Made by a program: the position numbers and the translations under genes
The notes under the pieces: model-generated
The model's database searches: none
What the model was told of the DNA's origin: nothing
What the model saw: only the letters and a program-made list of their open reading frames with translations
Source: Candidatus Hodarchaeota archaeon
Lineage (GTDB): Archaea > Asgardarchaeota > Heimdallarchaeia > Hodarchaeales > Hodarchaeaceae
Length of the DNA stretch: 46,641 nucleotides
Direction: 5' to 3'
Assembly: GCA_016839785.1 (NCBI GenBank)
Contig: JAEOTQ010000045.1
Location: forward strand, 1 to 46,641
Shown here: positions 29,195 to 44,982 of the stretch, one piece after another
Numbering within the stretch: position 1 is the first letter of the stretch
Layout of the letters: each line of letters begins with the position of its first letter

Positions 29195-30817
29195 TTAGAT
29201 AATTAGTTTAAAACTTTTTATTAGTTGTTTCTGTATTTTAGAAATTCTATAATGATTTAAGACGACTTCTTCCAGTTGGCTCAGGATAACCCCTTTCTTT
29301 GACTCCAGACCTATCGTCATTTTCTCGATTAATCCTTCTTCTTTTAGCGAGAATGGTAATTTGATGGGTAGCTGTTTTAAATAACTTATAGGAATTTTGG
29401 GAAAAATCGTTTTAACCGTCAAAAATTTATGATTCAGATAAAATGTCAGTAAAGAAGAGTTCAGTATGATTTCTAAATGTTTTAAGTTTATTTGAGACCA
29501 TTGTGATTTGAGGGTAATTATATACACATCGCAGACACAGAATAAGTTATTTGGATCATACGCTACAACTAACTCGTGACCAATCCTTCGGACCAGTAAT
29601 TTAGGTTTCGTATACATTGATTTATTTTTGTAAATCGATTTTTGGGTTGAATCAAATTCGATATATCGTTTTTCTCCTAGTATAACAAACTTCTGAATAT
29701 TTCTACCTGCTATTAACGGTACAGACTCCTTTGTAATAGGTACCTTACTTGTAAATTTCGAATTGAAACCTAATTCGATTCCACGTGAAATATAAGCAAT
29801 ATCCCCAAGTTTCAACGCGTTTTTTTCAATTGTTCCAATGATATCAGTAATTTTTGAGGCCATATTTGGCATTATATACTTGAACTTCTGATCCATGATA
29901 TTTACTTGCTCATTCTTCTTAATCTGTGTAAATCCTTCCCCAACTGAAAACTTACTGAATTCTATGATATTAGTATCGTTCTTTTCATCCTTAGATTTCT
30001 TATATCCTACTACAATACAGGTTTCCACAGATACGGATGGAAATATTTTGCTACCCAGCATAATAATTTTTTTCAGATTAAGCGTTTTAAGCAGAAATTC
30101 ACGAAATTTCTGATAGCGAAAGTTTGTAGTAAAATTATTCGGAATAAGGAATATCAAAACTCCTCCTTCCCTTAGTAGGTACACAGAGCGCTCAACAAAA
30201 AGAAGGTAACTTTCTATTTCTGGATCAACGCCTTTGTATAATTTCTTGTATATATTTTTCTCCTCAGAAGAGAACGAAATGCCAAAAGGAGGATTTCCTA
30301 TACATAAATCATATCCATCAGTAGCATTGGGAATTGGCCATTCATAAAACCAATGAAATGCAGTGTCTTGTAATTTAACAGTTGGATACTTAATGTTACT
30401 ATCTTCAAAAAACGAGATATTCAATTTCTCTTTTGTAGGATTACCTTCCTTAGTTTCATTAGCTTTGATATATCCAATTAAGGCATTTCCGGCTTTAAAC
30501 GAAATATCAATTTCAGAATTTGATGAGAATTTTTCCTTAATCAATTCACATTTTCTGATAGACTCATAATTTATATCTAAGCCATGTAAAATTAGGTGAC
30601 TATTTATTTGATCGCTTTTTTGGAGTTTTTTCTCGTGGTCTACAATTTCAAATAAAAACCTTCCGTCTCCAACCGAATTGTCAAGTATCCTAATACTACG
30701 AACATTAATTACTTCGCTTAGATAGTTTCTAATTAGTCCGAAAGCTATGTCAACCATTAATTTCACAATAGGAAGTGGTGTAGGGATTGCTCCTAATGGT
30801 TCTCTTCCTTTTTTCAA
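29195..30817 (-). CDS. Gamma-class amino (N6-A/N4-C) DNA methyltransferase, Eco57I/TaqI-like, with C-terminal TRD
   Basis: GAIPTP (motif X variant), ILDNSVGDGRF (motif I), FHWFYEWP...IGNPPFG (motif IV), ISRGIE, PKLLVRRIG...ILNSSLL. Confidence 0.85.
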   Translation of the reverse strand: MKKGREPLGAIPTPLPIVKLMVDIAFGLIRNYLSEVINVRSIRILDNSVGDGRFLFEIVDHEKKLQKSDQINSHLILHGLDINYESIRKCELIKEKFSSNSEIDISFKAGNALIGYIKANETKEGNPTKEKLNISFFEDSNIKYPTVKLQDTAFHWFYEWPIPNATDGYDLCIGNPPFGISFSSEEKNIYKKLYKGVDPEIESYLLFVERSVYLLREGGVLIFLIPNNFTTNFRYQKFREFLLKTLNLKKIIMLGSKIFPSVSVETCIVVGYKKSKDEKNDTNIIEFSKFSVGEGFTQIKKNEQVNIMDQKFKYIMPNMASKITDIIGTIEKNALKLGDIAYISRGIELGFNSKFTSKVPITKESVPLIAGRNIQKFVILGEKRYIEFDSTQKSIYKNKSMYTKPKLLVRRIGHELVVAYDPNNLFCVCDVYIITLKSQWSQINLKHLEIILNSSLLTFYLNHKFLTVKTIFPKIPISYLKQLPIKLPFSLKEEGLIEKMTIGLESKKGVILSQLEEVVLNHYRISKIQKQLIKSFKLII

Positions 30818-30822
30818 TTTCC

Positions 30823-32589
30823 TTACACCCCCTGTACAATTAATTGTGTTTCATCTTGTGATAAACCATATATTTTGAATACAATTTCGTCAATAATGAT
30901 TCTAAATCCTTCCATCTTTGAGTATTTATCGAAAATTTCTTCGATAGAAGCTTTGTTAAAATTTGTACCAAATTTTTTAGTTAACCATAACGAATCACTC
31001 ATATTCTTAGTTCGAAAAAATCTATCGAGCTGTTTCATGGATTTAAACATATTTTTGCCTGACTTTTGGAGAATATTTGATTCAATAATCATTCCCTCAA
31101 GTAATTCTCGAAGCTTACTCCCTTCCTCAAGATATGATTTGAAAATCTCCCCAATCGTAAAGAATTGGTCAAGCTTTGACTCTTTGGAAAGTAATTCTGT
31201 CAAAGTCTGAACTTCCCACCTTTTTATAAGTGTTTTAATCTTTCTACGAAAGTCAGGATTTGAATCACCAGTTAAACAAGGGATAATTACTTTGTTTAAA
31301 TAAGGTTTATCCAAATCTTTACTGGTTACAAATTGTTTAGTATATACTGCATGTTGTAACCACCAAATTAACAGTTTAGATTGAAATAACGCGGCATATG
31401 CATAAATTTCATTGGACGAGGAAGAAGGAGGTATAATATTAATGACAGTTTCATGGGTGATGTGGTTTCCCAACGAGTCCACCCAAATTGGAAGATTTAA
31501 TTGGAATTTTGGTTTGGTTTTATAGGAGATTATTCGTTGAGTAATGATTTTAGGTTGTAAGAATCTTTTCAGCTGAAGTTCAGGGACATCATTGCTGACA
31601 TAATTACGCTCTGGTAGTAAAAATCCGTGTGTAAACGTTACTTTTTCAATTAAGGGAATAGAGGATTCACTTGTGCGGTAACGACTATTTAAACCACGAA
31701 ACGCAATCCATTCAACACGTCTATGATCTTTTAGAAGCTTTTCCATTAATTCCTGTTCGGAAGGAGATACCCCAACAAGAAAATTATCAAAAATCACCGC
31801 ATTCCGAGTCTTTATCACTGAGATCGAAGTGAATCTTTCTTTTATTGGATCCCAAATTCCAGATTTATACTGTTCAGATGGATCCTTTTTCTGTAAAATT
31901 ACGACAATATGTTCTTGTAATTGGCCTGAAAATTGATTGGCTAAATCAAATACCTCTAAAAGCCGAACTTGTGTGAAACATATCTTTCGAAACAGTTTCC
32001 ATTTATTAGAATAAATGAAAGGTTTGGGTAGTATAAAAGAAAGGATGCCTCCATCTTTTAAGAGATTTACTGATTTTATAACAAAATAAAGAGCCGATTC
32101 TGAAGGAACATTCTCTTGGATGGTCAAATGATAGAGTTTCCGAATTTTATCCCATTCTTGAGGAGAATATTTCGCATTATGTGGAGGATTAGATATGATC
32201 AAGTCATATTTTTTTTCAACGGTCTCTGTATATGATTCTGTAAGATAATTTTTATGGTGAAATGTAACAGAACATCCCTCACTCTTGATTGCATCATTAA
32301 CTAATAATTTAGCCTTGGATAGTGCTGAAGAGTCAATATCAAGTGCATCAATGCTGATTAAACCAATTTTTTCACTCAATACCTGAATAAGTTTTTCACA
32401 AAAAATACCTTCTCCAACTGATGGATCTAACACCAATAGAGGGTTATCATTCCTTGATTCAGGAAGATGAGTGACAACGTTTTCGATTATTGCCTGTACA
32501 ACATTATCTGGAGTGAAATATTGTCCTTTTTCACGTTGAGTAATTGCCACAAGCATTTCCCAAAAATTACTTTGTTGTCGTGCTTCCAC
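30823..32589 (-). CDS. TaqI/Eco57I-like amino-methyltransferase with atypical NPPH catalytic motif
   Basis: KGQYFTP, VLDPSVGEGIF, IISNPPHN, LKDGGILSFILP, PKIITQRI. Overlaps the CCA gene (alternative ATG at 32556). Confidence 0.85.
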   Translation of the reverse strand: MEARQQSNFWEMLVAITQREKGQYFTPDNVVQAIIENVVTHLPESRNDNPLLVLDPSVGEGIFCEKLIQVLSEKIGLISIDALDIDSSALSKAKLLVNDAIKSEGCSVTFHHKNYLTESYTETVEKKYDLIISNPPHNAKYSPQEWDKIRKLYHLTIQENVPSESALYFVIKSVNLLKDGGILSFILPKPFIYSNKWKLFRKICFTQVRLLEVFDLANQFSGQLQEHIVVILQKKDPSEQYKSGIWDPIKERFTSISVIKTRNAVIFDNFLVGVSPSEQELMEKLLKDHRRVEWIAFRGLNSRYRTSESSIPLIEKVTFTHGFLLPERNYVSNDVPELQLKRFLQPKIITQRIISYKTKPKFQLNLPIWVDSLGNHITHETVINIIPPSSSSNEIYAYAALFQSKLLIWWLQHAVYTKQFVTSKDLDKPYLNKVIIPCLTGDSNPDFRRKIKTLIKRWEVQTLTELLSKESKLDQFFTIGEIFKSYLEEGSKLRELLEGMIIESNILQKSGKNMFKSMKQLDRFFRTKNMSDSLWLTKKFGTNFNKASIEEIFDKYSKMEGFRIIIDEIVFKIYGLSQDETQLIVQGV

Positions 32590-34540
32590 CTAATATTTCC
32601 CTAATTTTCTTTGCAGTGAAAGTCTTTCCTGTAAGTACATTACCGCTCATTATGACAAGACGATGATTATTTTTAGTCATCATTGACGCTATATCATTCA
32701 ACATTTGTTCGTAATTGTTTGATCTTGTGGATAGCTCTATAACTTGACTTCCTCGAGGAATTTGCAGTGAATTTGAATAAGAATCCAGTAAGGTTTCATA
32801 ACGGTTATAGATTGTAATATCTGCATCGCTTTTTGATAGAGATCGTTCCTCTAAATTTCTAGCATTGATATTTAGTTTAACATCGTCTTTAGATGCAAAA
32901 GTGTGCAAGAATATTGGATTGAAATACTTAAAGTTCTTGTATAACTTCTGTCGATGGAATGGATGTGAGGGTGAATTGAAATTTGTACCATCGAATATAA
33001 CCATAGTGGATTTATTACGCCGAAGAATACATGATACAACCCATATTGCTAATTGATATGTATGCGCACTCTCCCAGGACGAATAATCTGGAAAATTCTT
33101 TCGGTATAATTTTCGAACATGATCTGTTGATATAATACTAATTTTAGGAATTTTAAACGAAGTACATAAACTTATGACCTTCATAATTTGATCGAGTATA
33201 TCATACAATCCTTTCTTGGAATTATTTAATGGATCTACCTCCACTTGCTCTCTTAACAATTCCAAACAAATACCAATAAGCTCCCGTTGTGCAGTTTTTG
33301 TTTTATCAATATTTAAATGAGTTACGACTTCATTTCCATCAACTTTTAGGTCTTTAAGGTAGATCGGTCTCTGAGATATACTCCTTATTCGAACATCATG
33401 TACCAATGCTTCATTAGGTGATGTTGGGACTCCCAGAATTCTCCCCTTTGCTTGGTGAAATATTAGGTAATCTTCAAGAAATTTTGGTTGTATGTTGTAA
33501 AGTAACCGTCTTGTTGAATAATTTTTGTACTCGTCATCATCTTCTTCGAGAGAATACGGTAACGGTATCTTATGAATTGCTAATAGATGGATAATATCTT
33601 CGATCCGTTTATTTGGGAATTTAAGTTTTTTTAGAATTCGGGATAGGAGATTCTTATCTAAATCTGGGAGAAGAATTGATGTATCGTCAGTTAAAATAGA
33701 TAGCTGATGGAATAGCGCAGAGTATCGGAGATTTACCGATGATTCGGAACTTAGATCATTTATAATCTGTAAAGTAATGTCTAGACGAGTTAAATTCAAT
33801 GATGGGAGCGGTGTGTGTAATGATTCATGTTCATACTCTGGAATTATATGTTTAAGGAGATCAGTCGAAACTAAAAAATGTACAGCTTCCAGCCAGTGGT
33901 GACCACTCATTAACTTTTGAAATTCAGCCTCGATACGTTCCTTTGCCACCTGATCAAAAACATCTAAGTGTCTAGGAACTGCTGCAAGGGAAGATTTTTC
34001 TACAGAATATCCTAATTGTGAGACAAATCTGAAGATTCTAATTAATCGAAGTCCGTCTTCCCCTAACCTGGCATCAGGATCCCCCACTAAACGTAAAATA
34101 TGATTATTTAGATCAGAACGTCCATCGTAAGGATCTGTAAATTTTTCTGATATAGGATCATATGCAATCGCATTAATTGTCAGATCACGTCGAGCAAGAT
34201 CTTCCTCAATATCAGCTACAAATTGAACTTCAGAAGGATGACGTCCATCCTTATATTCTCCTTCGACCCGAAAAGTGGTAATCTCTATTGAAAGATTTTT
34301 AAAGAGAAGAGTAACAGTTCCATGTTGTATACCCGTTGGAATTACCCTGAATTGACTAAATAAATCCATAACTTCAGACGGAGAGGCGTCAGTTGCAATA
34401 TCCCAATCATGAGGTCGTGTTTCACCTCGCAGAAGATCACGAATTGACCCACCAACGACAAAAGCCTTGAACCCCGAAGAAGAAAATATGCGACAAATCT
34501 CAAGAACTTCCGTAGGAAATTGATTTGCGGTTAATTCCAT
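32567..34540 (-). CDS. cca: Class II CCA-adding tRNA nucleotidyltransferase fused to a C-terminal P-loop kinase-like domain
   Basis: VGGSIRD, DWD, TTFRVEGEYKDGRHP loop, DLARRDLTINA, EDGLR template motif, ERIxxE; about 190 extra aa with STDHVRK, IFDGTN, SDAD and GNVLTGKT. Confidence 0.88.
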   Translation of the reverse strand: MELTANQFPTEVLEICRIFSSSGFKAFVVGGSIRDLLRGETRPHDWDIATDASPSEVMDLFSQFRVIPTGIQHGTVTLLFKNLSIEITTFRVEGEYKDGRHPSEVQFVADIEEDLARRDLTINAIAYDPISEKFTDPYDGRSDLNNHILRLVGDPDARLGEDGLRLIRIFRFVSQLGYSVEKSSLAAVPRHLDVFDQVAKERIEAEFQKLMSGHHWLEAVHFLVSTDLLKHIIPEYEHESLHTPLPSLNLTRLDITLQIINDLSSESSVNLRYSALFHQLSILTDDTSILLPDLDKNLLSRILKKLKFPNKRIEDIIHLLAIHKIPLPYSLEEDDDEYKNYSTRRLLYNIQPKFLEDYLIFHQAKGRILGVPTSPNEALVHDVRIRSISQRPIYLKDLKVDGNEVVTHLNIDKTKTAQRELIGICLELLREQVEVDPLNNSKKGLYDILDQIMKVISLCTSFKIPKISIISTDHVRKLYRKNFPDYSSWESAHTYQLAIWVVSCILRRNKSTMVIFDGTNFNSPSHPFHRQKLYKNFKYFNPIFLHTFASKDDVKLNINARNLEERSLSKSDADITIYNRYETLLDSYSNSLQIPRGSQVIELSTRSNNYEQMLNDIASMMTKNNHRLVIMSGNVLTGKTFTAKKIREILGGSTTTK

Positions 34541-34634
34541 GATTGTACCTCTGACTACTTTCGAATTGAGGAAAAGAGCTATTAAAACCTTTAATATTTT
34601 CTATTGATCGATCTTACTTTCTGAGAGATGATAT

Positions 34635-37256
34635 TTGCAACAGCTATCTCAAAAACTAAAAGACCTTTATGTATCTCTTCTCCAAGGTGGAGAATACTTG
34701 GGATGGTCAGATACTTTCCTCTTTGAGGTAGCTCTTAATTCTCTAATCAAATTTCTTTCTTTATTTTATTACCAACCTTGGAACAAAATCACAGAAGAAT
34801 CATTTTCCCATCTTGGAAAATCGGAAAGATGTAAAAGATTTTTAAAAATATGGTTTCAGCAAACTAAAGGGTCTAATGATAGAAATCTAGTTCAGTTAGT
34901 TGCGAGAACTTGTTTTTATTTGTCTGATCTTACTACTTACGAGGAACAGTTGCTAAAAAGTGTCCCAGAAACAGATTGGGACCAAATGATCAACTTTTTG
35001 GGAAAATATCAATTCACTTTAGTCGAAACATTCCAGAAATCAGAGGGGGAAAACGATGGAATAACCCCAGAATTTCTCTCTATCTTTGCAGAAATGGTTA
35101 TTACTGAATATGAAAAAGATTTTTCAGTTTCACCCAAGGTTTCAAGTCGCAAGACAAAAGGGGTCTACTATTCACCATGGAGAATAATCCGAGAGTTAAC
35201 AAATAATCTAATAACAGAAAATAAAGTTCAGGTGACGGTGTTAGATCCAAGTTCTGGAACTGGTTCATTTCTACTTTACGCTGCAGAAAGGATTTTTCAA
35301 AATCAATCGAAAATTTCAAGTAAACGTGTTAAAGACCCCTCACTGATTGTCAGAAATTATATTTATGGGGTAGATAAATCTGGTCCAGGTATATTGGTAA
35401 CTAAGCTACGGTTGCTATTCTGGATGTTAACCAAAGATCCTGAATCAGAAATTGAAATCGATCAAGAGTCTTTTTCGAATATCCGGAACGGAAACTCACT
35501 TTTTGGGTTTGTTAATGAGAAATTCAGTCCATCGATTGAACTTCAGAGTTATTTTTCTCACAGGGCAGAAGAAAGGGAGTTAGAATATTCAGAAATTGAC
35601 AAATTGACTAAAGAATTATATAAGGATTGGGTAAATTCATGTACTCAACTAAAATCTGTTTTACAGAGTAAAAACTCTATAAATGGAACAAATAGTGAAA
35701 CCCTAATAGAAAAAGTGAATCTAGAGCTTTCAAAACTACTTGATATATCATACATACAATTTCTGTCTAGTTTAAGAACAAATACGACTATCGTCAATTC
35801 TAGTATCAATATTAACTTGACACAACACAATTTCTTCCACTGGGGACTCGTTTTCCCTGAGATTATCATTCATGGGGGCTTTGATATATGTTTAGGAAAT
35901 CCTCCGTATGGACGCTCTGTTCTGTCAGTAATAGAAAAAAATATACTTAAACTATCCTACGGGTCGTGCAAAGGATCTAATGCAAAAAAAGTAAGTTTGA
36001 ATGCTGCAGGAGCTTTTATTGAACGATCAATTAAGCTTTTAAAGCCAGATGGACGCCTAGCCCTTATTCTTCCATTTTCTGTTCTGAGAGTGGAAGAATT
36101 TGAAGGAATTCGTGATTATATTCTAGAAAAGACGGTAATTAACGAAATTCATGACGAATCTGCAGCTTTCCAAGATGTCACACTAGAAATGTGTTCATTG
36201 ATCTTAACAAAACATCAGAAAAGTGATCACTCGATATTTATTAAACCCAGAGAAGGTTTGGGATCTGGATCACATATAAAAAAATCAGTTTTTGTGAAAT
36301 ACAAGCGATTTATGATATACCATGATGCATATTGGCAGAAAATTGTTAATACAGGAGAATTCTCACAAGTCATGGGAGATTATGGAATAGATCATAGAAT
36401 TGTCAAGAAAGATCTAAGCAAGAAATACTCCCCATCCAATGATTATATTGTTCCTTTTCTTCATTCAGGAAAATGTGTAACCCGTTATGCTCTGAATCCC
36501 CGTTTTTTTCACTGGTCAAGACTAAATCATCCGAATAAAAGATTTAGAAAGTATCTGGAGGATCCTAAACTTATTTGTACTGCGATTGGCAACGAATTTC
36601 GTATTGCATACAAACCCAAAGGCATAATTCCTGGGACAAATGTTTCAATAATGGAAATTATTAATCCTCAACATGATTTCTTTCCCCTAATGATTATACT
36701 TAATTCGTCATTGATAAATTACTTGTTAAAACGTTATATATTGAATTATTCTCATCTCACGGTCTATTTACACAAGTATTACACACAATTAGTGCCGATA
36801 AAGTATCCATGGGAATATGAAAATGAATGGAAAACAATTGGAAGATATATTTCGTTTTTAACACAATTTTCTGTATTGAAAAATGATTTATCCTACCAAG
36901 ATGAGTTAACCTTTTTAAAAAGAATTACAGAACACCTTGTTTATCAATTGTATCTTCCAGAAGTATTTAAAGAGTCAAATCTGAATTTAGCTGAATTAAT
37001 AAAGGATTTTCTGTTGGATATTCAGATTGAGAATAGCATTGAGGTATTACTCTCCCCCATTAATAATATTAAGGAGATTATAAAGAAAGAAAATTCTAGT
37101 GTTATGAAAACTGAAGCAACAATAAATACAGTTATTAAATCACTAAATACCAAACAATTTCTCAGTTTCCTTCACCAATCCGAAAAAATCCGAGAAAAAT
37201 CTAGTTTAACACAAAAAATACTTCTTGATACTACTCCAAAAATGATTCGAACCTGA
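34635..37256 (+). CDS. Large Eco57I-like amino-DNA methyltransferase with TRD
   Basis: RKTKGVYYSP, VLDPSSGTGSFL, IYGVD, IRNGNSL, FFHWGLVFPEI..GGFDICLGNPPY, ILNSSL. Confidence 0.87.
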   Translation: MQQLSQKLKDLYVSLLQGGEYLGWSDTFLFEVALNSLIKFLSLFYYQPWNKITEESFSHLGKSERCKRFLKIWFQQTKGSNDRNLVQLVARTCFYLSDLTTYEEQLLKSVPETDWDQMINFLGKYQFTLVETFQKSEGENDGITPEFLSIFAEMVITEYEKDFSVSPKVSSRKTKGVYYSPWRIIRELTNNLITENKVQVTVLDPSSGTGSFLLYAAERIFQNQSKISSKRVKDPSLIVRNYIYGVDKSGPGILVTKLRLLFWMLTKDPESEIEIDQESFSNIRNGNSLFGFVNEKFSPSIELQSYFSHRAEERELEYSEIDKLTKELYKDWVNSCTQLKSVLQSKNSINGTNSETLIEKVNLELSKLLDISYIQFLSSLRTNTTIVNSSININLTQHNFFHWGLVFPEIIIHGGFDICLGNPPYGRSVLSVIEKNILKLSYGSCKGSNAKKVSLNAAGAFIERSIKLLKPDGRLALILPFSVLRVEEFEGIRDYILEKTVINEIHDESAAFQDVTLEMCSLILTKHQKSDHSIFIKPREGLGSGSHIKKSVFVKYKRFMIYHDAYWQKIVNTGEFSQVMGDYGIDHRIVKKDLSKKYSPSNDYIVPFLHSGKCVTRYALNPRFFHWSRLNHPNKRFRKYLEDPKLICTAIGNEFRIAYKPKGIIPGTNVSIMEIINPQHDFFPLMIILNSSLINYLLKRYILNYSHLTVYLHKYYTQLVPIKYPWEYENEWKTIGRYISFLTQFSVLKNDLSYQDELTFLKRITEHLVYQLYLPEVFKESNLNLAELIKDFLLDIQIENSIEVLLSPINNIKEIIKKENSSVMKTEATINTVIKSLNTKQFLSFLHQSEKIREKSSLTQKILLDTTPKMIRT

Positions 37257-37519: not shown

Positions 37520-37687
37520 ATGCAAGACCCGATTGATGGTGCAAAACTTCTCGAGGAATTAACCCTTGAGATGACAGATTCACAAAAAACAATTATAGCA
37601 AAAATAATTCAGGGTCAAAGTATTTTTTCTGCTTATTCTATTAAAGATGCTCTTACCGAGTTAGATGAATTATTCGACTCTAAATAA
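37520..37687 (+). CDS. Small helical protein, 55 aa (below the ORF-track cutoff)
   Basis: MQDPIDGAKLLEELTLEMTDSQKTIIAKIIQGQSIFSAYSIKDALTELDELFDSK*. GAGGT lies 7 nt before ATG; TTTATAAA at about 37445. Confidence 0.6.
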   Translation: MQDPIDGAKLLEELTLEMTDSQKTIIAKIIQGQSIFSAYSIKDALTELDELFDSK

Positions 37688-41833: not shown

Positions 41834-42592
41834 TTAATAAAAGCCCTCGATGAAGGCACGTACATTCTTACCCAATACATGATGATTATATCCCCCTTCA
41901 AGACATGCGAATCGTCTATTTCCTCCATGATCCTCACTATATAACTTTAGTATTGACCCAATTGATTGATAGTCTTTAGTAGATAGTAGCTTTCCCCAAT
42001 CATCTTCATGTCTGTCAAAACCAGCAGATACAGCTAAAAAGTCCACGGTTCCATGTTGAGCGAGAAAGTCAATTAAATTTGATGTAAACTCATTCGGGGT
42101 ATTTCCTTCACAGGCATAATAAGTGACCAAAGGATCATTTCTAAAGGTATTGTTGGATCCATCACCAAAATGAAGGTCAAAATCGACTATCAACGCATTC
42201 TGGATCTTCTTGTGTATACAATACGACCGAACTGCAATTGCTATATTATTGAAATAACAAAATCCCCAGTAGCCGTCAGGTGAGGCATGATGTCCTGGAG
42301 GTCGAATTGCAGCAAACATTGGTTGTTGATTGTAGGCATATTCTGCAGCCAAAAGAACCCCTCCTACTGCTAACAATGCACTTTGATATACCTCATCATA
42401 ATCATTTTGTACACGAGTCACATGATCATCCGTATGCACAAGTAAAACGTCTTCTACGGTAGCAGGTAAGGGAGTAATAACGGTAAAATCTGATAATTCG
42501 TCCATTATTGCTTCCATTCTCCCAGGTTTTGCTGCAGGATCAAACGTATACTCCAAATAGTAATCCTCGTGAAAAATGACTTGTTTAGACAT
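41834..42592 (-). CDS. Histone deacetylase superfamily protein (compact form)
   Basis: RPPGHHA, GFCYFNNIA, DFDLHFGDG, SAGFD, LEGGY. ATG 42592 preferred over 42664. Confidence 0.9.
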   Translation of the reverse strand: MSKQVIFHEDYYLEYTFDPAAKPGRMEAIMDELSDFTVITPLPATVEDVLLVHTDDHVTRVQNDYDEVYQSALLAVGGVLLAAEYAYNQQPMFAAIRPPGHHASPDGYWGFCYFNNIAIAVRSYCIHKKIQNALIVDFDLHFGDGSNNTFRNDPLVTYYACEGNTPNEFTSNLIDFLAQHGTVDFLAVSAGFDRHEDDWGKLLSTKDYQSIGSILKLYSEDHGGNRRFACLEGGYNHHVLGKNVRAFIEGFY

Positions 42593-42636
42593 ATTTTTTC
42601 TTCCTCTAAGTGTTAATTTACCTGAATTTGGAGTTA

Positions 42637-44982
42637 TCATGAGATTGGTTTTCCTAGACGCCATTCAACCTCAAATTTAATTGATTCCTTAATTTGATCA
42701 AGAATATGAGGAGCTAATCCTAGGTATTCAATACAAATTAGCTGATCCATTTTCCTTTGGATCAATGAATATTTAGTCTTTTCTCCAAATCGGGGGATTG
42801 GAAGTTCGATTAGTTGATCCAAAAGTTTTCTTAGTCTGCGTAAAATATTTTTTGGAACTAGTCTTGGATCAAGGGTGAGTAGATTTCGACATTCCCGCAA
42901 AGATAACTTCAAGGAACCTAATCCTAATGTTCTTGTCCCTTGAATCTCACGTAACAAGATTCCTAGAGATGAATTCATGAATCCTACAAGAAAATCATTC
43001 CAATCAGGATTATCCGGCCAAAATCCGATCCATTGTTTATCTATATGGAATTTCTGTTTATTGTATGCAACAAACGACCGCAAATACGTCATATTTGGAA
43101 TTATTAAAACTGGTTGAATTTTAGTAATTTGATACCAAGTCTTCTTACTTTTGTTACGAAAATAGGGTCGGGAGAGAAGCTCATCTTCATATGTACTTAG
43201 ATAATGTTGTAAATTCTGGTCTAATTCAAGAATAGGACCAGATGGAATATATAGTAAGGATAGAGGGTTTTTAGGGGAAGCGGTACTTAAGCTAATATTG
43301 TCTTTTGGTGACTTTGTCATGGGTACTAAGTAGTTTTGAGAAATATCATAATGACGGATTTTCTCTTCTGTCAAATAAAAAAATCTGTTTGCTCCAGTTG
43401 TAGAGCCTAATCTGAGATTCCCTAACTGATTTAAGAGACAAAATTTATCTTTATTAGCCAGAAGAATCTTATGTAGTAAGAAAGGTGCCATATTGAAGTA
43501 GTCTATTCTCAAAATGGGAAATTCATTGATAAGTTCTTGTGAGAAAAACATGTGGGGATTCGAGATCTGACTGATTCGATAAACATCACTTTCAGCAGAT
43601 TTAATAGTAACATTGGGTATGAGAGTTGAACATTGCATTTCCGCGGGTTTTAAATACTCAGATAATGGATCGATGTTTTCTAATAAGTTAGATAATTCTC
43701 CTTTCCAAACTAATAGATTAGTATACTGTTCATCATCAAATTTTTCTATTTTATGACCAATAATTATGTTAGTAATGATTTCTGCTGTTTCCCAAGGTTC
43801 TGAAGGGAGTTCTAGGATAAGGTCAATATTGAAATATTTGTCAAACAGAAGAAAGTTTATTGGAGCTAAAAACCGGGAAGAATACCAAGATCGTGATAAC
43901 ACTAGTCCAAGTACTCCGTTGGAGGTAAGTTTAAGCATAAGCTTCATCCAAAAATAAAAATAAAGATCTGCTTTGGAATCAATTTGATGGTTATTCTCTA
44001 GAAAAACTGATTGATATTCAGGTGAAGCCAAGAGTTTTTCAATAATTTTCCTCTTATCAATGTCATGATGACGGATATAAGGGGGATTTCCTACGCACAA
44101 GTCATATTTTATATTTGCTACGTCATCTTCGAGTAAAAAATTTGTCTCTTTTATATTTGATAGTGATGCCAAGAATTTTTCCATATCTGAAATTGACGTT
44201 GATTCATTTGGTACAATATTTGTTATCCAATGATGAAGAAAAACTAATTTTGTCAAGATAATATGATCAGAATCAATATCATAACCGTAAATATTTTGAC
44301 AGAAGTTTTCAAAAATCATCTTGTATTCGTTAATGGAGATTCGATTCTGTACCTGTGAGATTATATGGGTAAAAGAATTGATTATCTCGTGTAAAAAGAG
44401 TCCTGTTCCGCAACTTGGATCGATTACAGACATAGAAGATAATTTATCTATAAGGAAATTAAGAACATCTTCATTCGAGTTTGAAAAATTGTGTCGAAAA
44501 AGAATTTGATGGATAATTGAATGATTGGCCACAGAATCAATTTTGAGAATCAAGTACTGATACAGGCTATAATAACAGATGAACTGGACCTGATCTGGGG
44601 GAGTAAAGTATAATCCAGTAGTCTTTTTCTTACGAGTTTGTGTTAAAGATTCAAAAATATGAGATAATTTATAGATATCAATACCTTCTCTAATCACCTC
44701 ATATATTGCTTTCCACCACCAATTGGTGGTTTCTAACAGTTTTATAACATGATCAATCTGCTTATTATTAAAAGATTTAAGGATAAATCTAATTTTGGGA
44801 AGATTTTTGTCATTAGATAAAGATTGTAAGAAATTACTTCTATCAGTTACGTTGGGTACCTCTGAAATTGGAAAAACATAATAATATGTGAAGATACATT
44901 TGAAAAACGGAAGTAAATCTGATTGTTCCATAGATTCTTTTTCTAAACGCTTCAAAAAGTCCTGAAGTAAAGACGTCATCAA
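42637..44982 (-). CDS. Eco57I-like amino-DNA methyltransferase with TRD
   Basis: KKTTGLYFTP, VIDPSCGTGLF, IYGYDID, VGNPPYIRH, ADLYFYF, GSTTGANRFFYL, FMNSS. Confidence 0.88.
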   Translation of the reverse strand: MMTSLLQDFLKRLEKESMEQSDLLPFFKCIFTYYYVFPISEVPNVTDRSNFLQSLSNDKNLPKIRFILKSFNNKQIDHVIKLLETTNWWWKAIYEVIREGIDIYKLSHIFESLTQTRKKKTTGLYFTPPDQVQFICYYSLYQYLILKIDSVANHSIIHQILFRHNFSNSNEDVLNFLIDKLSSMSVIDPSCGTGLFLHEIINSFTHIISQVQNRISINEYKMIFENFCQNIYGYDIDSDHIILTKLVFLHHWITNIVPNESTSISDMEKFLASLSNIKETNFLLEDDVANIKYDLCVGNPPYIRHHDIDKRKIIEKLLASPEYQSVFLENNHQIDSKADLYFYFWMKLMLKLTSNGVLGLVLSRSWYSSRFLAPINFLLFDKYFNIDLILELPSEPWETAEIITNIIIGHKIEKFDDEQYTNLLVWKGELSNLLENIDPLSEYLKPAEMQCSTLIPNVTIKSAESDVYRISQISNPHMFFSQELINEFPILRIDYFNMAPFLLHKILLANKDKFCLLNQLGNLRLGSTTGANRFFYLTEEKIRHYDISQNYLVPMTKSPKDNISLSTASPKNPLSLLYIPSGPILELDQNLQHYLSTYEDELLSRPYFRNKSKKTWYQITKIQPVLIIPNMTYLRSFVAYNKQKFHIDKQWIGFWPDNPDWNDFLVGFMNSSLGILLREIQGTRTLGLGSLKLSLRECRNLLTLDPRLVPKNILRRLRKLLDQLIELPIPRFGEKTKYSLIQRKMDQLICIEYLGLAPHILDQIKESIKFEVEWRLGKPIS

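Follow-up and report, generated by a model that had tools for sequence, protein, structure and literature searches.

A divergent gene cluster on contig JAEOTQ010000045.1 of a Candidatus Hodarchaeota archaeon (assembly GCA_016839785.1) places a CCA-adding enzyme with a fused kinase domain, here called CCAk, between putative N6-adenine methyltransferases, here called MT_A, MT_B and MT_C. The window, that is, the stretch of DNA analysed, is the whole contig of 46,641 bp, from an assembly of 4.04 Mb that is 84.5% complete. In public sets, nearly identical proteins bear the label Hodarchaeales or Heimdallarchaeota. With moderate confidence, we interpret the cluster as a vertically inherited, genus-level feature of the Hodarchaeales, in which a bifunctional tRNA end enzyme is located among persistent orphan DNA methylases. 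The cluster is restricted to one genus-level clade and is not mobile; it behaves as inherited housekeeping genes do rather than as a defence island. The kinase domain of CCAk is circularly permuted: strand 1, the P-loop and helix 1 have been moved to the C-terminus.

A first-pass annotation, made from the letters of the DNA, had described four open reading frames (ORFs) at positions 29195-37256, and all of its coordinates match the ORF list (Table 1). The spacing is also as it described: counted from its GTG start, MT_B overlaps the end of CCAk by 23 nt, an ATG lies 10 nt past the CCAk stop codon, MT_B and MT_A are separated by 5 nt, and CCAk and MT_C diverge from a short spacer.

Within the GTDB genus, a full-length CCAk was found in 16 of the 21 other genomes, whereas 19 genomes from other families yielded none; the profile of the kinase domain matched 16/21 genomes in the genus and 0/2 in the sister family f2. 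Fifteen of the 16 congener loci were fetched; that of G009 was excluded, its contig being only 2.5 kb. In all 15 loci, MT_C lies divergently upstream and MT_B directly downstream of CCAk (MT_B is cut by the contig end in two), at CCAk identities from 73% down to 40%. CCAk is followed by MT_B in 5/5 metagenome loci, and MT_C is present in both of those reaching that far. The first-pass annotation had considered that the linkage might be absent in relatives; it is present in every relative carrying the fusion. Adjacency was scored by one script over these 20 loci (15 genome and 5 metagenome), and the counts for each junction are given in Table 1. MT_A is a facultative member of the cluster, with orthologs in 5/15 genome loci and 2/5 metagenome loci.

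MT_B orthologs are found in 14/21 and MT_C orthologs in 15/21 congeners, at the same locus and only in genomes having CCAk. The pairwise identities of CCAk, MT_B and MT_C correlate with r = 0.90-0.94 (91 pairs), which shows co-inheritance, not co-evolution. Because they are confined to the clade and diverge together with CCAk, the methylases seem to be persistent orphan methylases rather than parts of a defence island. Since the cluster is vertically inherited in a single clade, all loci represent approximately one evolutionary origin. CCAk, MT_B and MT_C (the triad) are all undetected in the same five congeners. This co-absence was considered as evidence of coupling and rejected, as the five triad-less congeners form a deep lineage, in which the PALP protein is ~40% identical, against 61-83% in the carriers. 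In one of them (G006), the syntenic contig ends inside the MT_A homolog, in other words, at an assembly break.

The distance from the CCAk stop codon to the first conserved motif of MT_B is 40-73 nt in 16/16 loci, with a purine-rich Shine-Dalgarno (SD)-like sequence between them. Because the motif follows the stop so closely in every locus, CCAk and MT_B are probably co-transcribed. It should be mentioned that two loci (L021 and L024) have no ATG, GTG or TTG in the MT_B frame anywhere from the upstream stop to the first conserved motif, and that the sequence GAGGTTGGG spans the CCAk stop codon in both; this suggests a non-canonical start or an unusual coupling. On the other side of CCAk, loci L019-L024 share a conserved block of ~35 nt located ~70-110 nt upstream of the CCAk start, with the inverted repeat AATTAG-N9-CTAATT. 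The repeat is perfect in L022, L023 and L024, imperfect in L019-L021, and absent from the spacer of the window. In G019, a 3-kb contig (C190, L032) carries a second, divergent partial CCAk (45% identity) followed by MT_B (36%), in a genome that has the main locus as well; either a duplication or a mixed bin could account for it.

Table 1. Features of the cluster and conservation of its gene junctions
Feature	Position	Strand	Description
MT_A	29195-30817	-	540 aa, gamma-class N6-adenine methyltransferase, motif IV NPPF, predicted TaqI_C target-recognition domain
MT_B	30823-32589	-	588 aa, N6-adenine methyltransferase, motif IV NPPH
CCAk	32567-34540	-	657 aa, class II CCA-adding enzyme with C-terminal P-loop kinase domain
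CCAk residues 1-444	33209-34540	-	class II (bacterial-type) CCA-adding head, neck and body
CCAk residues 445-657	32570-33208	-	circularly permuted AAA_33/PNK-like P-loop kinase domain
CCAk residues 633-640	32621-32644	-	Walker A/P-loop GNVLTGKT, displaced to C-terminus
CCAk/MT_C divergent intergenic region	34541-34634		94 nt; both promoters presumed here
MT_C	34635-37256	+	873 aa, N6-adenine methyltransferase (NPPY), helical N-terminal domain, helical insert, predicted TaqI_C target-recognition domain
MT_B-CCAk junction			adjacent in 18/18 assessable loci
CCAk-MT_C junction			adjacent in 17/17 assessable loci, divergent arrangement kept
F420ox-MT_B junction (with or without MT_A)			adjacent in 8/14 assessable loci
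MT_C-PALP junction			adjacent in 10/14 assessable loci
PALP-CobAT junction			adjacent in 4/8 assessable loci

The kinase domain noticed by the first-pass annotation is real, but it is rearranged, with the Walker A motif only 17 residues from the C-terminus. In a Pfam search, residues ~450-657 of CCAk gave no match at E ≤ 0.01, including no direct match to AAA_33. Residues 445-657 are strongly conserved in the 16 orthologs, with invariant TDH.R, WE..HTY, FD.TN, P.H..R, N...R, S.A and the terminal GNVL.GK. Within the P-loop, Gly633, Asn634, Val635, Leu636, Gly638 and Lys639 are invariant in these orthologs, and the pattern GNVL[TS]GK[TS] is kept in 16/16. The AlphaFold (AF2) model of the domain has a predicted local distance difference test (pLDDT) score of 83.7 and a predicted template modelling (pTM) score of 0.83.

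In an exhaustive fold alignment, the top match of this model was PSTK (3A4L; Z 8.2, root-mean-square deviation 2.9, 134 residues). Further matches were Kti12 (6QP0; Z 7.9), the C. thermocellum Pnkp kinase (4GP6; Z 7.7), and T4 Pnk (1LY1) and the Trl1 kinase (Z 6.5). The alignments with Z values of 8.2-6.5 cover 119-139 residues, and residues ~21-181 of the model are superposed on the target from about residue 30, past the P-loop helix. When 1.84 billion proteins were searched with the profile of the domain, 37 matched at E ≤ 1e-3. The matches outside the CCAk family are proteins of ~145-250 aa (E 1e-7 to 1e-3), and 11 of the 12 scanned carry AAA_33 (PF13671). When the domain was compared by hhalign with an unpermuted AAA_33 protein of 199 residues, columns 24-182 were aligned with residues 54-196 (probability 97.6%, E 2.6e-12); the P-loop of this partner lies before residue 54, outside the alignment. 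Against PFKFB3, the P-loop segment (profile 167-207) corresponds to residues 4-44 and the FD.TN segment (59-105) to residues 95-139, so that the order of the two is swapped. The nearest Atlas clusters of the kinase domain are AAA_33, Zeta and KTI12.

The permuted order is also seen in two stand-alone proteins of ~210 aa (P0050 and P0058). Their encoding loci were not found in the scans of the collection, and the cluster look-up returned only "hypothetical protein" on contigs of 2.4-5.7 kb. In a metagenome protein of 1535 aa (P0051), which has MIB_HERC2 repeats, residues ~477-810 consist of a PNKP-type HAD phosphatase and, directly after it, the permuted kinase, with the P-loop last. This combination points to polynucleotide end-healing chemistry. 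In the papers searched on permuted P-loop kinases, tRNA nucleotidyltransferase fusions and RNA repair neighbourhoods, no description of the CCA-kinase fusion, the permutation or the methylase linkage was found.

The N-terminal part of CCAk matches PolyA_pol (PF01743; E 7e-36, 123.8 bits, cut-off 23) and PolyA_pol_RNAbd (PF12627; 37.3 bits, cut-off 22). The catalytic motifs A-E of class II enzymes are GG.[IV]RD, D.D, RRD..IN and ED..R..R; in CCAk, GGSIRD, DWD, RRDLTINA and EDGLR..R are invariant across the 16 orthologs. By these profile and motif matches, CCAk belongs to the class II CCA-adding enzymes; its score under the equivalog cut-off of NF009814 marks it as a divergent member.

The archaeal class I CCA enzyme (PF09249) was not found in this genome. 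It was found in only 2/21 congeners, against 15 of the 19 genomes from the other families of the class, with one of these 15 scoring under the cut-off. Class II is represented twice in the genome, by CCAk and by a paralog of 385 aa located on a different contig, and the catalytic motifs are retained in both. Of the two, CCAk has the more canonical sequence (258 vs 186 bits with the Bacillus-type model), and it is closer than the short paralog to the single enzyme of sister family f5 (37.6% vs 33.7% identity). CCA addition is needed in this organism because 21 of the 29 predicted tRNA genes lack an encoded CCA. The premise of the first-pass annotation that cca is a housekeeping gene requires a caveat, as class II is present here as two paralogs and class I was undetected.

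According to a 2026 preprint (10.64898/2026.05.29.728689), the CCA enzymes of Hodarchaeales are of class 2 only, in many cases present as paralogs A and B, and CCA addition in vitro was shown for one such enzyme from Hodarchaeum. The trees of that study were built after trimming the C-terminal regions, and the words kinase, methyltransferase, fusion and synteny are absent from the preprint.

Some observations on related CCA genes may be added. In the region 1807-5087 of C100 (L033), the short paralog is flanked by a Sir2-family gene and by a radical SAM gene of the PA0069/Rv2578c type, which begins 3 nt past the stop codon of the paralog. In two genomes of the same genus, G011 and G018 (87% and 93% complete), both the class I (PF09249) and the class II CCA enzyme were undetected with the queries used. 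In sister family f5, the single class II CCA-like gene (523-541 aa) adjoins a stand-alone AAA_17/18 P-loop kinase gene in 3/3 genomes (L042, 6961-9286; L043, 6448-8775; L044, 7325-9634). These kinases are 71-75% identical to each other; kinase and CCA-like gene diverge in two of the genomes and run in the same direction, 6 nt apart, in the third. The f5 genomes yielded no orthologs of MT_B or MT_C. The stand-alone kinase was considered as the ancestor of the fused domain of CCAk and rejected, since only the P-loop matches (hhalign probability 8.7%).

MT_A matches the Pfam families TaqI_C (2.5e-23), Eco57I (1.3e-18) and N6_Mtase (5.5e-14), and MT_C matches Eco57I (2.9e-21), N6_Mtase and TaqI_C. 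MT_B matches N6_Mtase and Eco57I, whereas its C-terminal half (residues ~240-588) is conserved but has no Pfam match. TaqI_C, which is above threshold in MT_A and MT_C, may represent their target-recognition domain (TRD). The MT_B profile matched M.BseCI (8.4e-24) and CamA (2.9e-17) in the PDB. The MT_B family comprises 58 clusters scoring at least 254 bits, below which the scores drop to 110 bits or less. Where a cluster carries a source name, the label is Hodarchaeales, Heimdallarchaeota or another group of Asgard archaea. As motif IV, 47 of the 58 members have NPPH and 10 have NPPY, and in one no such motif was found.

MT_C matches BsaXI, M.TaqI and PglX in sequence, and the top Foldseek matches of its AF2 model were BrxX/PglX (6.5e-12), CamA, BsaXI and HsdM. 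The pLDDT of this model is 70.4, and the TRD (residues 574-674) is poorly modelled. Residues 1-125 are all helix in the model, with no strand of 3 or more residues. By sequence and fold comparison, the nearest relatives of the methylases are DNA N6-methyladenine (m6A) enzymes. The recognition halves contain many invariant residues across orthologs that are 33-45% identical overall, which suggests a fixed target. Persistent orphan methylases are documented in archaea (PMC10609329). MT_C-like genes also occur in sister family f2, with 42-45% identity over the C-terminal half only; the one in G022 has a polyprenyl synthase and an AAA_14 ATPase as neighbours, and no CCA gene was seen there.

The contig was scanned with Pfam on 39 ORFs and with PADLOC on 20 of these. 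No nuclease, helicase, HsdR/S, BREX or DISARM gene was recognised among the 39 ORFs, although a remote or unrecognisable nuclease is possible. The statement of the first-pass annotation that no such gene lies nearby is thus borne out, the matches being to methyltransferase models only, apart from two weak coiled-coil-type matches on an ORF 20 kb away. PADLOC gave no system and no match for CCAk. PglZ, BrxC, BrxL, DrmA/B/C and other mad genes were not found among the 39 ORFs. RNA ligase, phosphatase, 2'-O-methyltransferase and an anticodon nuclease with HsdMSR were also not found in a search limited to the contig. The methylases score 17-57 bits with the NCBIfam BREX/MADS models, against cut-offs of 400-900, and the PADLOC Type IIG, PglX and DrmMI profiles match only from position ~300-500 on, that is, in their methylase and TRD parts. 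Because MT_A and MT_B begin with methylase motifs, neither has room for an N-terminal nuclease.

These results might be combined as follows. The short divergent region would direct MT_C one way and a polycistronic CCAk-MT_B(-MT_A) transcript the other way. Translation of MT_B would probably occur by re-initiation, at the purine-rich site beside the CCAk stop codon. CCAk is predicted to add or repair the 3' CCA of tRNAs. Its permuted kinase domain most likely uses ATP, phosphorylating a hydroxyl group on the same tRNA or RNA substrate. The first guess for this group is the 5'-OH end, as in end-healing, and the second is a group at the acceptor end, as in PSTK. MT_B, MT_C and, where present, MT_A would mark chromosomal DNA at fixed motifs. 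The tie between the methylases and CCAk would then consist of co-expression and co-inheritance, presumably without a joint mechanism.

Several points weigh against this interpretation. The score of CCAk with the Bacillus-type model NF009814 (258.1 bits, positions 10-390 of 396) is under the equivalog cut-off of 290. Foldseek with the kinase model gave nothing in the PDB at E ≤ 0.001; such an empty result is expected because the domain is permuted. The kinase Z values (~8) are middling by the aligner's own calibration. Motif IV of the MT_B family is mostly NPPH, not NPPY/F/W. The kinase activity and DNA as the methylase substrate are predicted from sequence and model only. Either of the two CCA paralogs may be the housekeeping one, and in the congener G004 (89% complete) only the short paralog was detected. 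Furthermore, the triad stayed intact while both outer junctions broke, which is more than expected of unrelated neighbours, and the packing of CCAk and MT_B is too close for the two to be expressed independently. There is one node at which the methylase linkage, the fusion of the kinase and the second CCA paralog all arise, though this is a single event.

The first-pass annotation had proposed a joint DNA-modification and tRNA-repair system of antiviral or epigenetic character. The triad would then be one module, in which tRNA end-healing (CCA repair and phosphorylation) is coupled to self-DNA methylation. Such a module could serve, from the chromosome, to counteract viral nucleases or toxins that cut tRNA, or it could be an epigenetic circuit tuning tRNA maturation. 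A Type I restriction-modification (R-M) system, EcoprrI, is linked to an anticodon nuclease, PrrC, whose action T4 Pnk and ligase counter. The internal junctions of the triad are unbroken (18/18 and 17/17) where the outer ones are broken, and the genes are packed like an operon; mechanistic coupling is mildly favoured by these two features. CCAk, MT_B and MT_C orthologs also occur in the same genomes and are missing from the same five congeners. However, the cluster yielded no gene for a nuclease, ligase, phosphatase or sensor, and PADLOC finds neither a system nor a match for CCAk. Vertical inheritance in one clade reduces the loci to about one evolutionary event, the five triad-less genomes form a deep lineage, and in one of them the contig ends inside the MT_A homolog. 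With no defence partner found, vertical descent in one clade and nearest methylase relatives that are all DNA m6A enzymes, the proposal is not directly supported, and we regard a single module as unlikely.

A wider form of the same idea is that the triad is a single, once-arisen machine, in which a CCA-adding enzyme with a rearranged RNA kinase heals tRNA ends, and in which its co-expressed, DNA-methylase-like partners methylate those RNAs as well or else link the integrity of tRNAs to a nuclease-free self-marking of the chromosome. We hold this to be quite unlikely. If it were true, it would be a new coupling of RNA repair and epigenetics in a lineage often placed closest to eukaryotes.

The first-pass annotation had also offered that the methylases are redirected to RNA. 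MT_B, MT_C or both would be recruited to, for example, m6A formation on tRNA or rRNA, the same molecules on which CCAk acts. Their genes are probably co-transcribed with a tRNA enzyme, and the conservation of the TRD-like regions over orthologs of 33-45% identity suggests one fixed substrate. The motif IV of the MT_B family is unusual (NPPH, 47/58), and generic TrmN and RlmF models match weakly, at 18-26 bits against cut-offs of 302-350. On the other hand, the significant relatives are all DNA m6A enzymes solved with DNA (M.BseCI, CamA, TaqI, BsaXI, BrxX/PglX and HsdM), and MT_A and MT_C contain the DNA-recognition domain TaqI_C. Conserved TRDs are equally expected of persistent orphan DNA methylases, as described in PMC10609329. 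RNA substrates are very doubtful, and this suggestion of the annotation is not directly supported.

It is highly improbable that the methylase genes are a chance insertion next to cca, in an arrangement kept without selection. The genome is rich in the family, with 13 Eco57I ORFs, but the arrangement recurs in 15/15 congener loci, in 5/5 metagenome loci and in the second partial copy of G019, while the flanks are rearranged around the cluster; these observations contradict such an insertion. Finally, ordinary Type IIG R-M fusions with a cryptic nuclease, a possibility raised by the annotation, are extremely improbable, as are Type IIL fusions or the methylation half of BREX, DISARM or MADS: the Pfam Eco57I model and the PADLOC models REase_MTase_IIG, PglX, DrmMI and mad2 do match, and the 873 aa of MT_C are within the Type IIG size range, but, as given above, the profiles match only in their methylase and TRD parts and the BREX/MADS scores are far under the cut-offs, MT_A and MT_B start with their motifs, the model of MT_C residues 1-125 is entirely helical, no partner gene was found on the contig, and the orthologs are kept at a fixed locus genus-wide.

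Two neighbouring regions of the contig should also be described. A fourth Eco57I-type methylase, absent from the first-pass annotation, was found by Pfam among the contig ORFs at 42637-44982 on the minus strand, so that 4 of the 13 Eco57I-family ORFs of the genome are on this contig (1.15% of the assembly). It has 781 aa, with an NPP motif at residue ~299, and overlaps the start of an HDAC-family gene (41834-42664, minus strand) by 28 nt. This adjacency of methylase and HDAC-family gene is kept in 4/4 assessable related loci (L015, L017, L020 and L023). Between MT_C and the PALP gene, a 55-aa ORF (37520-37687, plus strand) is preceded by an SD-like GAGGT. It is 64-78% identical in L015, L017 and L038, and PADLOC gave no match for it.

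In a wider context, Hodarchaeales replaced the archaeal CCA-adding enzyme with bacterial-type ones. Two properties of CCAk are unreported in 10.64898/2026.05.29.728689, namely its conserved, permuted PNK/PSTK-like kinase end and its fixed position between orphan adenine methylases specific to the clade. Should the kinase act on tRNA, CCAk would be a new bifunctional tRNA end-processing enzyme and a rare case of permutation among P-loop kinases. As persistent DNA markers, the methylases would add to the evidence for extensive restriction-free m6A marking in this lineage; a joint action with CCAk would connect RNA repair and methylation in a new way.

The CCA-adding part can be compared with the class II enzymes of bacteria (NF009814; NF008137 for E. 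coli), with which it shares the PolyA_pol head, the RNA-binding neck, the body and the invariant motifs. The E. coli CCA enzyme has a second end-repairing activity, an HD phosphohydrolase, in the same polypeptide. Unlike this multifunctional CCA addition/repair protein, CCAk has no HD domain, and its extra domain is a kinase, not a phosphatase. Unlike the bacterial hosts of class II enzymes, the host of CCAk is an archaeon without a detectable class I enzyme.

As for linkage, bacterial Pnkp-Hen1 RNA repair combines a kinase with an RNA methyltransferase. The present cluster resembles PrrC-EcoprrI and Pnkp-Hen1, both conceptual analogues, in that R-M-type or methyltransferase genes are genetically linked to enzymes of tRNA damage or repair. 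It differs from them in that an anticodon nuclease, HsdR/S, ligase, phosphatase and 2'-O-methyltransferase were not found in the cluster, and in that its methylases are of the DNA N6-adenine type. MT_C is similar to PglX/BrxX of BREX and to Type IIG/IIB enzymes (BsaXI and MmeI-like) in its methylase core, helical N-terminal region and TRD, whereas neither BREX partners nor a nuclease domain were found for it, and its scores are far under the family cut-offs. The methylases also resemble persistent orphan methylases (CamA of C. difficile, Dam, CcrM and the archaeal groups of PMC10609329): no nuclease was found, inheritance is vertical, and the putative recognition domains are conserved. In sequence and fold, CamA ranks with the closest matches to MT_B and MT_C. 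Unlike those methylases, two or three of the present ones flank a tRNA enzyme and share its operon or promoter region, and their methylation is predicted from the genes.

The kinase part of CCAk shares the fold core of the AAA_33/PNK-type kinases and of the tRNA-bound kinases PSTK and Kti12, with D..R, FD.TN, R and SDAD following the P-loop helix. All of these are directed to RNA or tRNA. Unlike the AAA_33/PNK kinases, in which strand 1, the P-loop and helix 1 are N-terminal, the kinase of CCAk has these elements at the C-terminus and is fused to a CCA-adding enzyme.

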